Source of the DNA: an uncultured delta proteobacterium
GTDB lineage: Bacteria > Desulfobacterota > RBG-13-43-22
Direction: 5' to 3'
Assembly (NCBI GenBank): GCA_963711835.1
Contig: CAVQFQ010000017.1
Span: 128,001-192,000, forward strand
DNA length: 64,000 nucleotides
Shown: positions 6,067 through 52,780 of the stretch, piece by piece
Layout: every line of letters starts with the position of its first letter
Numbering within the stretch: the first letter of the stretch is position 1
The notes under the pieces: generated by a model
Told to the model about the DNA's origin: nothing
What the model saw: the letters and a program-made list of their open reading frames with translations, nothing else
Databases searched by the model: none
Position numbers and translations under genes: made by a program

Positions 6067-6371
6067 TTAAATACTAAGCAAAGATCTTTGCAATTTTTTC
6101 TAAAGTCCTGAATAAATGGTGTAGGGGGGCCCTATTTTTTAAGTTGTCCAAAGGGTGACTAAGAGCCCCTAATCCGGCCCGAATAACTAAGTTTATGTTA
6201 GAGCAGGGCATTCACCAACGCCTATTTCCAGCCTGGGTGTAGGCCTGCTGATGAAATAGGGTTCGCATTTTGGCCCGGCAAAGAAGCTTATGGCTTTGGG
6301 GTGGACAACTCAAAAAATAGGACCCCCCTACACCTGATATTTGAAAATTAGATATAAATTCCCAGAATTAA
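6067..6371. repeat. Non-coding element copy 1: core 6118-6334 bounded by 33-bp inverted repeats, inside TTAA-bounded flanks
   Basis: ggtgtaggggggccctattttttaagttgtcca (6118-6150) vs tggacaactcaaaaaataggacccccctacacc (6302-6334), 31/33; homologous to 9560-9862 and 43971-44241. Confidence 0.9.
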
Positions 6372-6463
6372 GAGTATTACAATCTATCAAATGTAAGGAA
6401 GAAAGAGTTCTTAATCAAGGAAAAAAATGATATAGTAAGCAACCTCTTTTTTGGACACCTCCA

Positions 6464-9559: not shown

Positions 9560-9862
9560 TTAAAACCCAAGCAAAGATATCCGAAATTTTTTCCCAAGTC
9601 TTGAAGGAATGGTGTTGGGGGGTCCTATTTTTTAAGTTGTCCACCCCAAAGCCAGGAGCTTCTTTGCCGGGTCAAAATCGGATAGTGTTTTGGCAGCAGG
9701 CCTACACCCAAGCTGGAAATGGGCTGGGGTGTAGGCCCTGCTCTCAAATGATCTTAGCTATTCGGGCCGGATTGGGGGCTCTTAGTCACCTTTTGGACAA
9801 CTTAAAAAATAGGACCCCCCAACACCGGATATTGGAACGTTAGAGATATATTCTCAGATTAA
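9560..9862. repeat. Non-coding element copy 2: core 9611-9826 with perfect 33-bp inverted repeats; interior inverted relative to copy 1
   Basis: ggtgttggggggtcctattttttaagttgtcca (9611-9643) / tggacaacttaaaaaataggaccccccaacacc (9794-9826); interior matches the reverse complement of 6151-6301, flanks match copy 1 directly. Confidence 0.9.
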
Positions 9863-9930
9863 AAAATGTAAAAATCTGATTGGGTTGGATTATGTCCGAT
9901 CTTAATCACGATTCTATAAGGAGGATTTTT

Positions 9931-13402: not shown

Positions 13403-13597
13403 ATGAGCCGTAGGGTGACCATCAACGAGGAAGAGTGTATCGGCTGTGGAACTTGTTCGGAGCTTTGTCCGGAAGTCTTTCAGATGAACGAAGAAAAAGA
13501 AAAGGCCGAGGTGATCAAACCGGAAGGCGGGGCGTTCGATTGCATTACCGAAGCTATGGAGGGTTGTCCGGTTTCTTGTATTCACTGGGAGGAATAA
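13403..13597 (+). CDS. Monocluster [4Fe-4S]/[3Fe-4S] ferredoxin (copy 1)
   Basis: CIGCGTCSELCPEVF...CPVSCIHWEE. Confidence 0.95.
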   Translation: MSRRVTINEEECIGCGTCSELCPEVFQMNEEKEKAEVIKPEGGAFDCITEAMEGCPVSCIHWEE

Positions 13598-14708: not shown

Positions 14709-14897
14709 ATGAAAGTTTATCTTGTGGAAGAGGAATGTATCGGCTGTGAAAGCTGTTCGGAGCTCTGCCCGGAGGTTTTTCAGATGAACGAGGAAAAAGA
14801 AAAGGCTGAGGTGATCATGCCCGAAGGGGGACCGACGGAATGCATTAACGAGGCCATTGAAACCTGTCCAGTCTCCTGCATCCATTGGGAGGAATAA
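14709..14897 (+). CDS. Monocluster ferredoxin (copy 2)
   Basis: MKVYLVEEECIGCESCSELCPEVF...CPVSCIHWEE; close paralogue of 13403-13597. Confidence 0.95.
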   Translation: MKVYLVEEECIGCESCSELCPEVFQMNEEKEKAEVIMPEGGPTECINEAIETCPVSCIHWEE

Positions 14898-17131: not shown

Positions 17132-17290
17132 GTTCGTGTCCTTTCGGTTGCTTCAATTGAATGTTATACAACCAGAAAGATATTAACATATGATCATAAA
17201 GGGTTCACTCATTAAAAGGCACTTGTTAAGAGAAAAAGGATTTCTGGTTTTTTGTATTGACAGCGAGAAGAACCTTAGTGATTTTTACTT

Positions 17291-17364
17291 AAGGGGAACC
17301 GACGGAATGCATTAACGAGGCCATTGAAACCTGTCCAGTGTCCTGCATCCATTGGGGAGAATAA
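17291..17364 (+). pseudogene. 3' fragment of ferredoxin (direct repeat of 14824-14897)
   Basis: 70/74 nt identical to the 3' end of ferredoxin copy 2, including the stop codon. Confidence 0.9.
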
Positions 17365-18465: not shown

Positions 18466-18590
18466 AAATTCGAAATCCGAAACAAATTCAAATGATCAAA
18501 TTTAAAAATCGAAACGTTTTTGTTTTGATCATTTAGGTTTTGGACCTTCGTACTTGTTTCGGATTTCGTGCTTCGTATTTCGAATTTATA
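18466..18590. repeat. Heptad-periodic palindromic intergenic repeat (copy A)
   Basis: aaattcgaaatccgaaaca...tgtttcggatttcgtgcttcgtatttcgaattt; close copy at 40363-40471; preceded by (gatrctg)3 at 18396-18417. Confidence 0.8.
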
Positions 18591-18633
18591 GGTCCTCATG
18601 TTCAAAGGCTAACGAGATAAATTCTCAGATTAA

Positions 18634-21672: not shown

Positions 21673-22803
21673 ATGCTGGAACGCCTCAAGCAGATATTGA
21701 TCAAGGAATTCATCCAGATCCTTCGGGATCCCCGAGTCAGGGGCGTGGTTTTTGCCATGCCGGTTATTCAAATGGTCCTCTTCGGGTATGCGGTGACCAC
21801 CGATGTCAAGCATGTGGCCACGGCCGTTTATGACCTGGACCAGAGCGTTGCCAGCCGGGAGATCGTGGCCCGTTTTGTCCGATCGGGGTATTTCGACATT
21901 GTTTCCCATGTGACCCGGGAAGAAGAGGTGCAGGCTCTGCTGGACCGCGGACAGGTCCAGGCCCTGCTGCGCCTGAACAAAGGACTGGAAGAAAACCTGA
22001 AAGGCGGGAGGCCGGCGGCCATCCAGCTTATCGTGGATGGGACCGATTCCAATACCGCCGCTATTGTCTTAAATTATAGCGGCAAAATTGCGGCCGAATA
22101 TTCTCAGGAAATTTTAATAGACCGTTGGGCTCGCCTGCGTGGCCTTAATCAGAAACCGGGGCGGGTGGAGTTGGAGTCCCGAGCCTGGTTTAATGAAAAC
22201 CTGGAGAGTCGAAATTTTTATGTGCCCGGCGTCATCGCTTTGCTGGTCATGCTCATCACCCTGATGTTAACCAGCATGGCCGTGGTCCGGGAAAAGGAGA
22301 TCGGGACCATGGAGCAGATCATGGTCACTCCCATTACTCCGAAGGAATTTATTTTAGGGAAGACCATTCCTTTCGCCCTGATCAGTTTCATTGATGTGAT
22401 CTTGATCACCCTCGTGGGGGTATTCTGGTTCGAGGTCCCTATCCGGGGAAGTCTGTTGTTGCTCCTCTTGGCCACCGGGCTTTATGTCATGACCACCCTG
22501 GCGGTAGGACTTTTCATTTCCACGGTCAGCCGCACCCAGCAGCAGGCCATGATGAGCGCCTTCTTTTTTAACTTTCCGGCCGTGCTGCTCTCGGGATTCG
22601 TCTTCCCCATCGCCAATATGCCCGAAGTGATCCAGTGGCTCACCTACCTCAATCCCCTGCGGTATTTCCTGATCATCATTCGCGGGGTTTTCCTTAAAGG
22701 GGTGGGATTCATGATTCTCTGGCCGCACATGGCGGCCCTGACGGTAATGGGCCTGCTGACCTTGTGGCTGGCCTCGCGAAGGTTTCAAAAAACCATGACC
22801 TAA
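21673..22803 (+). CDS. ABC-2 permease (YbhR-like)
   Basis: IKEFIQILRDPR, VREKEIGTMEQ, LSGFVFPIANMP. Confidence 0.92.
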   Translation: MLERLKQILIKEFIQILRDPRVRGVVFAMPVIQMVLFGYAVTTDVKHVATAVYDLDQSVASREIVARFVRSGYFDIVSHVTREEEVQALLDRGQVQALLRLNKGLEENLKGGRPAAIQLIVDGTDSNTAAIVLNYSGKIAAEYSQEILIDRWARLRGLNQKPGRVELESRAWFNENLESRNFYVPGVIALLVMLITLMLTSMAVVREKEIGTMEQIMVTPITPKEFILGKTIPFALISFIDVILITLVGVFWFEVPIRGSLLLLLLATGLYVMTTLAVGLFISTVSRTQQQAMMSAFFFNFPAVLLSGFVFPIANMPEVIQWLTYLNPLRYFLIIIRGVFLKGVGFMILWPHMAALTVMGLLTLWLASRRFQKTMT

Positions 22804-22931
22804 CAGGTTGATGAAAAACGCCCATCTGCTGTGTTGCCCTCGTCCCTCGTCATACCGGCGTACTTATATGTACGCCTCATTCCTCGGAAGTTCGGGCGCC
22901 TTGCATCTGAGCATTTTTGATCAACCTGTTA
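22801..22931. mobile_element. MITE-like element with IS5/IS1182-type ends
   Basis: taacaggttgatgaaaaacgc ... gcatttttgatcaacctgtta terminal IR, flanked by CTAA/TTAA; internal ggcgtac-N-gtacgcc hairpin; no ORF. Confidence 0.7.
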
Positions 22932-22970
22932 ACTCAGGTTTGGATTAAATCACCAAATATGGAGGCGGGT

Positions 22971-37396: not shown

Positions 37397-38497
37397 AAAG
37401 CGGGACGCTCTTTAATAATTTAATTGACATTGTAGCCTGATGATATTAATAAAGAAATATGCCTAGAACAGCACGACTTGATGCTCCCGGCGTTCTGCAC
37501 CATGTCATAATTCGGGGAATAGAACGCAGGAGGATATTCCGTAACGATAAAGATCGTGAGGATTTTATTGAACGGCTTGAGACTCAATGTACTGAAGCGC
37601 AGACAACCTGTTATGCGTGGGCGTTCATGTCTAATCACGCCCATTTTCTTTTTCGTACTGGAACGGCGCCATTGTCCAAACTCATGAGCCGTCTGCTTAC
37701 GGGGTATGTTATCGGTTTTAACCGCCGACACAAACGCCGTGGTCAATTATTTCAGAACCGGTACAAATCTATAATCTGTCAGGAAGATGCGTACCTTAAA
37801 GAATTGGTCCGGTATATTCATTTGAATCCTATTCGTGCGGGAATAATTACTGGTTTGGAGGAATTAAAAAGCTATGACTATTGCGGTCATAGTGCTCTAA
37901 TCGGCACAAAGAAAAGGGAATGGCAAGACACGGATTATGTGCTCGCCTATTTCGGGAAAAGGAAAACTCAAGCGCGGAAAGATTATGAATCATACGTTAA
38001 TGAAGGACATCAACAAGGTCGAAGGAGAGAATTAACCGGAGGGGGACTGATCCGGAGTCTTGGCGGCTGGACCGAGGTAAAAAGAGAACGTTTGAAGGGG
38101 CGGGATCATGTTATGAGCGACGAACGAATCTTGGGTGATTCGGATTTTGTCGACTTAATCATCTCACAATCCGAGGAACAATTCGAACGGAGACATAAAC
38201 TAAAACGGCAAGGGTTTGATCTGGATCGTATTGCTGAGAGAGTGGCTGAAGTCTTAAACATGGACAGGGATGAAGTCTTATCAAAGGGGCGGCAGAACAG
38301 AAAAGTAAAAGCAAGAAGTATTCTGTGTTTTTGGGCTGCAAGGGAATTAGGCATGTCCCTTACAGCGCTAGCCAGGATTTTAGGAATGAGTATTGCTGGA
38401 GTGGGGTTTGCCGTGGAAAGGGGAGAGCTCATAGCCAAAAATGGCAATTTTAATCTGATAAACTGACTTATTAAGTTACTAAAGAGCGTCCCGCTTT
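37397..38497 (+). mobile_element. Inverted-repeat-bounded unit carrying a RAYT-like transposase
   Basis: aaagcgggacgctctttaataatttaat (37397-37424) vs the reverse complement of 38470-38497, 26/28; lower GC than flanks. Confidence 0.75.
37459..38466 (+). CDS. HUH Y1 transposase (REP-associated tyrosine transposase-like) with C-terminal HTH
   Basis: MPRTARLDAPG.LHHVIIRG, AWAFMSNHAHFL (HUH), GQLFQNRYKS, LVRYIHLNP (catalytic Tyr). Confidence 0.9.
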   Translation: MPRTARLDAPGVLHHVIIRGIERRRIFRNDKDREDFIERLETQCTEAQTTCYAWAFMSNHAHFLFRTGTAPLSKLMSRLLTGYVIGFNRRHKRRGQLFQNRYKSIICQEDAYLKELVRYIHLNPIRAGIITGLEELKSYDYCGHSALIGTKKREWQDTDYVLAYFGKRKTQARKDYESYVNEGHQQGRRRELTGGGLIRSLGGWTEVKRERLKGRDHVMSDERILGDSDFVDLIISQSEEQFERRHKLKRQGFDLDRIAERVAEVLNMDRDEVLSKGRQNRKVKARSILCFWAARELGMSLTALARILGMSIAGVGFAVERGELIAKNGNFNLIN

Positions 38498-40362: not shown

Positions 40363-40471
40363 CAAATTCGAATGATCGAATTTCGAAATCCGAAACGTTT
40401 TTGTTTTGATCATTTGGATTTTGAATCTTCGGGCTTGTTTCGGATTTCGTGCTTCGAATTTCGGATTTATA
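40363..40471. repeat. Heptad-periodic palindromic intergenic repeat (copy B)
   Basis: Aligns with 18483-18590 (shared gaaacgtttttgttttgatcattt and cttgtttcggatttcgtgcttcg). Confidence 0.8.
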
Positions 40472-40474
40472 GAC

Positions 40475-42084: not shown

Positions 42085-42165
42085 AGGATTAAGGGGTCAA
42101 GGGTCCAAGGGGCCGGTTGGAAGGTCCTTCACTTGGACCCTCGAACCCTCGGGTCCTTGAATCCT
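42085..42165. repeat. 8-bp-periodic palindromic intergenic repeat
   Basis: aggattaaggggtcaagggtccaag...cttggaccctcgaaccctcgggtccttgaatcct; related copy at 52697-52780. Confidence 0.65.
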
Positions 42166-42173
42166 GTTTTGCT

Positions 42174-43902: not shown

Positions 43903-43931
43903 AAAAGATTTTTTTTCTAAAAATAGAGTTT

Positions 43932-44296
43932 GTCCCAAAGTTACGTGATTTTTAAGCCATCCATTCATAGAGGGCTTCAGGGGTCTTGATTTCAAGGTTG
44001 TCCGAAAGGGTATCCGTAGCCCCAAACTGGGATCCACTCCGCAGGAGTGGGACTGAGCATTGTTTTGGATGCGAAGAACCCGGCCAGAATTTCTAAGTTG
44101 GTTGGGAGCCGGGCATTCACCTAAGACGATAAATCGCCTTGGTGTTGGCCTGTTTCAAAATCCCATTATAAACTTCCTGCCCGGGTTCAGGCTGTTGGCG
44201 TTTTGGCGGACAATCCTTGAAATCAAGACCCCTGAAGCCCTTTGGTAATATTTAAGAGGCTACCCCTTCGGTTTGAGAATTACGTAACTTTGGGAC
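43932..44296. repeat. Non-coding element copy 3: nested inverted repeats (outer MITE-like 27 bp, inner 34-35 bp) around a structured core
   Basis: Outer gtcccaaagttacgt.. 43932-43958 / 44270-44296 (23/27); inner 43971-44004 / 44207-44241 (one bulge); core shares ccggcc.gaat..ctaagtt, gagc.gggcattcacc and ggtgt.ggcctg with copy 1. Confidence 0.85.
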
Positions 44297-44338
44297 TATC
44301 CTAAAAAATAGGTTCTTCTCCCGACAACCCGGGAGAAA

Positions 44339-50953: not shown

Positions 50954-52690
50954 ATGAGAAAAATTGCGATACTATCACATTCTATCTTCTGCTATTGATT
51001 TCAATATTACCGAAAATTGTTTTAGGAGCTGTGGCGGGAAAGCCCTCCGGACCTTCCGATATCCTGATCGTCTCCGGGACCATCGCCAATGCCCAGGGGA
51101 AAGGGGTCAAGGAGGTGGGGGTTCATTTCTTTCTCAATGGTCAAAAAATTGAGTTAAAGGATGAGATTGCCACCTCTAGGGAGGGAAATTATAAAGTGGA
51201 AATCGCCTTGCCTACCGGAAGCCTGCCGGGCGCAAAGGTAGAAATGCAGGCCGATAAGCCTTCTTATCAGGAGTCTCAACAGATTGCCTTAGCCTCCATT
51301 GTGAAAGAGAAAACGGATGCCCAGGGAAATACCTATTATCTGGCTCATCAAAATGTGACCATAAAAAGGGCCGTTTCCCCGGCCTTTTGGATCGCCACCC
51401 TGGTGCTGATCCTGGTTTATGCCCTGATTGCCTTCGAGGTCATGCACCGGACCCTGGCCGCCCTGCTGGGAGCGGCCCTGCTCATGTTCATCACCTATAC
51501 GGTAGGGACGTTTAACTCCGATTACACCATCCTGAAATTTGAAGACGCCATGCACGCCATGGACATGAACGTCATCTTTTTGCTGATGGCCATGATGATC
51601 ATCGTCGGGGTCATGAAAAAGACCGGGGTCTTCCAGTGGCTGGCCTACAAGTCCTTCCAGGTGGCCCGGGGCAATGTTTTCGCCCTGGCGGCTGTGCTGA
51701 TGTTCGTCACCGCCTTCGTTTCGGCCTTCCTGGACAACGTGACCACCATGCTGCTGATCATCCCGGTGACCATTGAGATCGCCGTGACCTTAAAAATCAA
51801 CCCTGTCCACCTACTGTTGCCCGAGGCCTTCGCCTCCAACGTGGGAGGCACAGCCACCCTGATCGGGGACCCGCCCAACATCATGATCGGCTCCTATGCC
51901 AAGCTCAGTTTCGTGGATTTCGTCCAGAACCTGACCATCATCTGTCTGATCTGCCTGGTGGTCATTATTATCTATTTCCTCTACTGGTACAAGAAGGGGT
52001 ATCTAAAGGCCGAAGTCGGAGATATTCCCAAAATGATTAATCACTTGCGGCAGGAATACAAGATCACCAACGGCAGACTCCTTGTCTACTGCGCTATCAT
52101 GCTGGCGGTTACTATTTTTCTGTTTATCATCCACGGGGCCCTGCACATGGAACCCAGCGTCGCTGCCCTGATCGGGGCCGCCCTTCTGCTGGTTATCACC
52201 CGGGTGGATATCGTCGAGATGCTGGAACACGAGATCGAGTGGCCGACCCTGATCTTTTTCATGATGCTCTTCATCGTGGTGGCCGGGGCCGAAGAGACGG
52301 GGCTGATCCAGATCATCGCCGATTGGGTCAAGGACGTCTCCGGCGGTTCCCTGGTGGTCGGCCATCCTGATGATCCTCTGGGTCTCGGCCCTGGCTTCGG
52401 CAATTATTGATAACATACCTTTCACGGCCACCATGCTGCCCATCGTGGCCTATTTGACCCAGGTCATTCCCGGGGCCCAGAGCGGGGTGCTCTGGTGGGC
52501 CTTGTCTTTGGGGGCCTGTCTGGGCGGTAACGGGACCATGATCGGGGCCAGCGCTAACGTAGTCACCGTGGGCATGGCCGAACGGGCCGGCTATCCTATT
52601 TCCTTCATGTATTATCTGAAGGCCGCCTTTATCCCGATGATCATCACGATCATCTTGTGTTCATTCTGGTTGCTGCTGGTGGAAATGTAG
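50954..52690 (+). CDS. ArsB/NhaD (P-protein-like) ion transporter with extracytoplasmic N-terminal domain; frameshifts near 50980 and 52360
   Basis: SAFLDNVTT, ASNVGGTATLIGDPPNIMIG, SAIIDNIPF, GGNGTMIGASANV; AAGGAG RBS before ATG 50954. Confidence 0.88.
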
Positions 52691-52696
52691 AAAAGA

Positions 52697-52780
52697 AGGG
52701 TTCAGGAGTTCAGGGGTTCGAGGGTCAAAAGATTTTTGTCCTTGCATTCTTTCACTTGAATCCCTGGCCCCTTGAATCCT
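52697..52780. repeat. 8-bp-periodic palindromic intergenic repeat
   Basis: agggttcaggagttcaggggttcgaggg...ttcacttgaatccctggccccttgaatcct. Confidence 0.65.

Follow-up and report, generated by a model that had tools for sequence, protein, structure and literature searches.

The inverted-repeat cassette described here proved to be a non-autonomous DNA repeat that is nested in other elements and whose core flips; it is not a new RNA family. Its copies lie within the ends of outer elements, here called shells. Probably, this non-coding repeat has been moved in trans by the enzymes of its shells, while copying at the DNA level keeps its two arms matched and flips its core. The window is the whole stretch of DNA analysed, 64,000 nucleotides in length (G000:C17:128001-192000, where G000 is the genome of the window).

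The unit in the window and its family in the genome

Copy 1, a unit of 310 bp whose parts are listed in Table 1, is flanked by divergent etfB-like and histidine-phosphatase genes. The preliminary description had reported the arms accurately: the two arms are complementary at 31 of 33 positions in copy 1, at 33 of 33 in copy 2 (9611-9643/9794-9826) and at 27 of 27 in copy 3 (43971-43997/44215-44241), and the A/T difference between copies 1 and 2 is present in both arms. It had missed, however, that the unit runs 44-49 bp past the arms on each side. The letters CTA stand at 6074-6076 and again at 6384-6386, and copy 1 has these CTA junctions in place of an ISH6-type 17-bp repeat or an 8-bp duplication. 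In run X3, one empty-site contig has 6073 directly followed by 6384, and the three letters CTA at this joint could belong to either side; since the short side of this contig, 23 nt, is below the 30-nt caution, it is supporting only and weak alone. Between copies 1 and 2, the flanks repeat in the same direction (D9, D10), whereas the cores are mutually inverted (I1). The boundaries of copy 2 were carried over from copy 1, as its junction triplets are degenerate. The 8-bp duplication flanking copy 3 (43918-43925/44303-44310) is alike at seven of eight positions.

Table 1. Positions of the repeat units, of their parts and of a second cassette family (window positions unless a contig is named)
Feature	Position	Strand	Remarks
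Whole mobile unit, copy 1, subfamily S1	6074..6383	+	shell end A, arm, core, arm, shell end B
Shell end A	6074..6117	+	left end of the Rep_trans-like element family; direct repeat D9
Left inner arm	6118..6150	+	33 bp, with the class-wide GGGTCYY-N10-12-TTKTCC motif
Asymmetric core	6151..6301	+	either orientation within the shell
Conserved box 1	6174..6180	+	CCGGCCC, 30 bp from arm TTGTCC
Conserved box 2	6203..6209	+	GCAGGGC, 29 bp from box 1
Conserved box 3	6242..6248	-	GGCCTGC on +, mirror of box 2
Conserved box 4	6272..6278	-	GGCCCGG on +, mirror of box 1; 30 bp to box 3 and 30 bp to right-arm GGACAA
Right inner arm	6302..6334	-	33 bp
Shell end B	6335..6383	+	right end of the Rep_trans-like element family; direct repeat D10
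Copy 2, S1	9567..9875	+	shell oriented like copy 1, core inverted
Copy 3, S3	43926..44302	+	17-bp outer terminal repeats, ~50-bp insert in core
Second cassette family	G000:C17:392992-393249, C9:3734-4000, near C17 44047, C4 480184, C22 10047		

A profile search of the genome with the cassette gave 151 loci, 120 of them full-length, enclosed by at least five outer shells. By their flank markers, 103 of the 120 full-length cassettes were sorted to shells S1-S5, and 17 were left over. An outer inverted repeat or the S1 ends accompany 108 of the 120 copies, as compared with eight of 119 control flank pairs, and each of the remaining 12 showed at least one shell end when read. There is no cassette free of a shell, all 120 adjoining at least one shell end. 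The S1 shell, to which copies 1 and 2 belong, has asymmetric ends lacking the outer terminal inverted repeat that S2-S5 possess. Terminal repeats of 17 bp mark S3-S5, and an exact 8-bp duplication flanks 17 of 37 S3, nine of 23 S4 and two of three S5 copies (crossed-pair controls: 0.4%, 0% and 0%, respectively). Of 15 S2 copies, 12 are bordered by TTAA left and right, although this is a fixed word and the control reaches 75%.

The copies are intergenic, only eight of 120 overlapping an ORF by crude gene calls, and the family shows the features of a MITE in being short, non-coding, multi-copy and intergenic with defined junctions. All 201 arm-motif sites of the assembly fall in known copies, and no autonomous cassette end was found at the contig ends of this assembly. 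Collapsed shells that have lost the core keep differing pieces of the arms, suggesting deletion at microhomologies. S2-type shells also house a second family of cassettes, which have an inner inverted repeat of their own and apparently occur in both orientations (Table 1), and several other nested cassettes occur in ISH6 shells elsewhere. Nesting is thus general.

Several further features were noticed. A locus at G000:C25:45076-45300 is a chimera of an S2 end with an arm, an S3 end with an arm and part of a core, and an S1 end. In several cores, for example at G000:C17:91017-91178, C16:105815 and C27:3852, part of the sequence is replaced or interrupted, at positions that differ, by a small CCCGCC-n-GGCGGGACT hairpin. 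A two-gene DDE element with a 7-bp duplication sits in box 4 of one cassette (L001:1180-3370, G000:C10), and other S4 cores carry at the box 4 site a 12-bp hairpin that looks like its footprint. The DDE element within the copy at C10:53481-55975 was considered as a partner and rejected, as its ends are its own and it was inserted later. Identical cores with common flanks were seen on pairs of contigs (G000:C17:356209/C27:8472, C17:360811/C27:3845 and C1:45/C21:25607), which suggests duplicated or strain-mixed contigs; the contamination figure is 6.4%. The window also holds intergenic repeats at 18471-18591 and 40379-40472 (a periodic CGAAAT-type repeat), an inverted-repeat element at 22791-22941, a GGTTCAGG-type repeat at 42133-42173 and 52689-52729, and duplicated short coding-like segments (D2, D3; 13427-13597, 14727-14897 and 17278-17364), possibly small ferredoxin genes.

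The shells and their candidate enzymes

A scan for the S1 left end gave 116 stretches from many phyla. This core was found at none of the 80 loci examined in other taxa, and many of these loci hold other small hairpin cargo. At one locus (L220), both S1 ends surround a 551-aa gene (element 869-2524), and a locus of a relative (L316, G019:C51) has both S1 ends with a gene 61% identical to that of L220. In genome G020, five copies of a 25%-identical homologue (L317, L322, L325, L327 and L328) have unrelated right flanks and all end in CTA; three further elements were found in G016 (L321, L324 and L326). The S1-type elements are multi-copy and insertion-type, 1.9-2.1 kb long and devoid of terminal repeats, with proteins of 515-550 aa. 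The S1 repeats, copies 1 and 2 among them, are the miniature, non-autonomous form of this Rep_trans-like element family. An S1-type gene was not found in this genome, which is 89% complete.

Among 7999 candidates, 6375 were homologues of the S1 protein. It has no match in Pfam, NCBIfam or PHROG, and no viral locus was found for it. Its structural model (pLDDT 84; N-terminal part, 90), of a protein of 540 aa, comprises a TBP-like domain (TBP Z 8.5) together with a winged helix at the C-terminus. The model resembles RepSTK1 (4cij; VIA Z 7.4, rmsd 4.3, 177 aligned; Foldseek E 0.008-0.01) and RepDE (4cwc; Z 6.9, rmsd 5.4, 175 aligned), and it also resembles viral TBP-fold and inovirus proteins. 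Residues D20, E253, Y328, K330, R336 and E338 are invariant. At these middling structural scores, they may fit the Rep_trans-type site given in PMC13107129, in which Rep-Arvir likewise pairs a Rep_trans fold with a winged helix. The S1 protein, a candidate enzyme of this type, resembles the Rep_trans initiators (RepSTK1, RepDE) and Rep-Arvir in its TBP-like domain and winged helix and possibly in its invariant residues, whereas it differs from the initiators in residing in an insertion-type element, in having no family match and in its middling Z scores. A limited literature search found no description of the S1 enzyme as a transposase.

Scanning metagenomes for the S4/S5 repeat yielded 121 stretches, of which L090, L100 and L103 are elements of 1.63-1.65 kb with the repeat at both ends and 8-bp flanks, exact in two of the three. 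Their proteins of 457-460 aa score 457-490 bits against the ISH6 model NF041731 (cut-off 240). S3 may be tied to ISH6 by the likeness of its repeat and duplication; an autonomous element with the S3 ends was not found. No ISH6 gene was detected in any of the 21 class genomes with an ISH6 query protein. The repeats resemble bacterial MITEs in being short, non-coding and dispersed between genes, in sharing the 17-bp repeat of S4/S5 with complete ISH6 elements and in the AT-rich 8-bp duplication of S3-S5. They differ in that the same inner cassette also occupies the shells of unrelated systems, in that the cassette's inverted repeat is its own, longer and more nearly perfect, and in that an outer terminal repeat is missing from copies 1 and 2.

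Other partners were rejected. IS6, considered for the 8-bp shells on account of a likeness, is represented by PF13610 in none of the 21 genomes, and IS1595 is present in nine of 21 but has different ends. Tn3-family elements carry a 38-bp repeat that starts with GGGG and ends in TAAG. TAAG is found at position 38 in only some S1 arms, and PF01526 was found in none of the 21 genomes. In the proposed mechanism, ISH6 and Rep_trans-like enzymes would mobilise the repeats in trans; neither gene was found in this assembly.

Conserved boxes and the way into the shells

The four GC boxes of the core (Table 1) are invariant at a spacing of about 30 bp, and the length of the cassette is also kept, across genera at about 52% identity. 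Invariance and phasing together suggest that the boxes are recognised as DNA sequence. Likenesses to Xer/dif, attC, IHF and DnaA-box sites, judged by eye, were dropped. By BLAST, the cassette was detected in 12 of 14 sister-genus genomes, and a sequence model detected it in 19 of 21 class genomes, in all four genera; the arm motif is enriched relative to its control in most class genomes. In a phylum sample of 146 genomes outside the family, there was one marginal match (E 0.0099). No cassette match was found in plasmid and phage collections, one match to a viral contig being chance coding DNA, and no description of this repeat was found in a limited literature search. Relatives carry the cassette in S1-, S2- and S4-type shells and in both orientations, and in the distant genera it resides in other shells.

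Since the cassette, conserved throughout the class, has been met nowhere but within the ends of unrelated elements, it needs its own way in. Neutral nesting fails to explain one cassette in many unrelated shells, and it does not explain the conservation of the boxes either. We suppose that the boxes are binding sites for a protein, predicted to be the cassette's own putative transposase or recombinase, and that this putative enzyme may have placed the cassette into new shells once or rarely. A stronger version, which we consider rather unlikely, takes the cassette as a hitch-hiking mini-element: a module of fixed length, with a phased array of protein-binding sites, that repeatedly colonises the ends of unrelated insertion elements and improves their spread. 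If this were true, the colonised shells would be those of ISH6 (a DDE element), of an element with TTAA junctions and of a Rep_trans-like rolling-circle element not described before, as well as further shells of the sister genera; better spread would mean that most copies of such shells in the genome carry the cassette.

A less probable explanation, for which we see small prospects as an account of the whole cassette, is that it is a REPIN-like dimer of TIRs, cut as a single-stranded panhandle by TIRYT, an HUH/Y1 enzyme of subclass 2.1, and pasted into other elements. As either strand could be pasted, both orientations and matched arms would result. In accordance with this explanation, at least seven long Y1 genes of the genome are accompanied by GGGG[AT]C repeats (relatives, 7-19 matches each), several of these repeats read GGGGTC-N12-TTGACA with the spacing of the arm word GGGGTC-N12-TTGTCC, and both types of end show tandem GGG[TA]C words. 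TIR dimers and families are described in PMC3733652, and the GGGGTC start, the 12-bp spacing to a TTG word and the paired arms are shared with TIRtrons as portrayed in PMC3733652 and PMC6006769. On the other hand, the arms read GGGGTCY and miss the A at position 7 of GGGGWSAS, the form given in PMC3733652, and the subfamilies have no common GTAG/CGTC foot. No cognate gene was found among the loci examined: the core model had no match at the Y1 genes examined (in relatives, 30 loci of 65 matches, five genomes), and the nearest Y1 gene is at least 3.7 kb from any full copy. The varying breakpoints of the flips (see below) and the confinement of every cassette to a shell also argue against it. 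The TIRYT explanation is nonetheless compatible with shell enzymes moving the whole unit, and it is the best lead for the cassette's own way into the shells. The window itself contains a TIRtron at 37397-38497, with a Y1 transposase gene at 37459-38466, a DnaA_C-like helix-turn-helix and 28-bp inverted repeats.

Matched arms and inverted cores

The arms of 89 copies were compared (2213 cells), after exclusion of S5 and of any copy in which the anchors failed or more than five positions differed. Of the variants private to one copy, ten were shared by the two arms and 25 were confined to one; by an arithmetic estimate, about 0.1 would be expected in both arms by chance. That private changes are often found in both arms points to copying from arm to arm at the DNA level. 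As compared with permutations, concerted change is clear in S4 (19 vs a mean of 4.6, maximum 11) and borderline in S1 (14 vs 8.1, maximum 15), with no excess in S3 (11 vs 10.0) and S2 (2 vs 1.1). In three copies (C17:515011, C19:44292 and C4:304659), the sequence of one arm is found copied on the core side of the other, so that the arm extends into the core.

The core occurs in both orientations in most shells (AB/BA: S1, 8/12; S2, 13/3; S3, 30/9; S4, 22/3; S5, 3/0), and the overall split among the 98 cores placed on a tree is 74 vs 24. About 20 changes of orientation are counted on this tree, of which at least seven are forced by well-supported branches; shuffled orientations gave a mean of 21.9 changes, with 85 of 500 shuffles as low, and the bootstrap has not settled. 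S3-type cores are also found in S4 shells. The orientation in S2-S4 is skewed 65:15 (p 1.4e-8), which suggests that flipping is recurrent but slow, whereas the S1 ratio of 8:12 fits 50:50 (p 0.50). In flipped copies, the asymmetric arm sites track the core in some cases and the shell in others, and the breakpoints vary. An opposite-strand joint was seen in run X2, but it lies within the shell, short of the unique flanks.

These patterns could be produced by template switching, or by recombination between the 33-bp arms, while the region is single-stranded. In PMC8604942 and PMC5941160, template switching homogenises arms and inverts spacers; the inverted spacers given in PMC8604942 are of 2-5 bp, so that the 150 bp considered here is an extrapolation. 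Recombination between the arms is an equal candidate. The Correia repeat enclosed elements of Neisseria are similar, being MITEs with long inverted repeats whose core can invert (PMC10969869, citing Elbeyioglu 2017). Their repeats, however, are the element's own ends, whereas the invertible part of the cassette is nested within second ends.

The preliminary description had raised a new structured RNA or ssDNA family as a possibility, with a shape recalling 6S RNA or a substrate for HUH or retron-type enzymes. That the element is a structured non-coding RNA, a 6S-like rod or a retron-type template whose pairing is under selection, we now consider very improbable. The 33-bp arms and their co-change stood, but a conserved RNA rod with compensatory changes was not supported. 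Copy 1 as a whole folds at z -5.9 and its minimum-energy fold retains the closing stem, but the interior alone gives z +1.2; the proposed paired words are all in the sequence, yet this fold pairs the interior otherwise. The central bubble measures 21-22 nt per side rather than about 15, and the word ggtgt(a/t)gg, placed at the arm ends, is confined there to subfamily S1. In an alignment of 58 cores from this genome and nine relatives (A3), double changes occur at five of eight pairs of the closing stem. Of the proposed interior stems, 56% of the gagc/gctt cells are paired, and double changes are found at none of the six pairs of ccgg.cc/gg.ccgg and at one of seven in agcagggc/gcctgct; cacc/ggtg has them at four of four pairs, but each in one or two sequences, with five to nine sequences unpaired. 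Only the closing stem remains in the RNAalifold consensus. Addition of 11 cores from distant genera (52% identity to the near ones), which show a matched G-to-T change in both arms, leaves the closing stem and removes cacc/ggtg. Only two closing-stem pairs among the top mutual-information pairs belong to the proposed structure.

Some observations do favour an RNA. On four of five measures, the full proposed structure exceeds all 500 column shuffles, although this excess rests on the closing stem and single sequences, and kinship alone can yield it. The interior z is mildly negative (mean -1.14; 14 of 58 below -2), but the reverse strand folds about equally (mean -1.05). Arm mismatches in S3 prefer G-U over A-C (43 vs 20), mostly from one A/G site, and this bias is absent in S1 (1:6), S2 (3:5) and S4 (11:10). 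The length of the cassette is conserved, and this assembly has no canonical 6S match, the 6S model RF00013 having found none over the whole genome (89% complete). Against an RNA, as the preliminary description had itself stated of Rfam, no motif was matched, either at gathering or at E-value thresholds; the orientation of the core is random to genes (37 vs 36 in tandem gaps), and there are 120 dispersed copies with transposon junctions. The likeness to 6S RNA is therefore in the drawn stem-bubble-stem of about 200 nt, and the differences are the missing match, the interior stems that are not conserved, the copy number and the absence of strand preference. The retron reading is likewise unsupported: the sole reverse transcriptase of the genome lies 14 kb from the nearest full copy and looks like a piece of a group II intron maturase. 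The RNA data comprised the contigs of one run, covering 9% of words. Of the two causes that had been offered for the pairing, selection and active homogenisation, the second is supported for the arms and the first is unsupported for a rod; MITE palindromy with arm-to-arm conversion, which had been named as the refuting outcome, is largely what we found.

It is hardly credible that the copies are genome-wide phase-variable switches, in which one site-specific invertase flips the core and alters the expression of neighbouring genes, for although long perfect inverted repeats surround a 150-bp asymmetric segment found in both orientations, orientation is almost unlinked to descent, S1 fits an even ratio and the copies are intergenic, the skew of S2-S4 is unlike an equilibrated switch, the varying breakpoints are accompanied by conversion tracts, serine recombinases are absent from the assembly, tyrosine recombinase and IS110 genes lie at least 2.0 kb and 6.0 kb, respectively, from full copies, and the two core ends face gene starts almost equally often (66 vs 65, crude gene calls).

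Taken together, arm-to-arm copying in a repeat can mimic compensatory change, and the candidacy of this element as an RNA should be dropped. What the nested repeat offers in its place is an architecture in which a single conserved cassette occupies the ends of mechanistically unrelated mobile elements throughout a class. Its 120 copies are a natural record of flips, arm corrections and collapses for a spacer of 150 bp. Since copies 1 and 2 are non-autonomous, about 45 bp of one end and 50 bp of the other likely suffice for movement, and these two copies are ready substrates for testing the Rep_trans-like enzyme.
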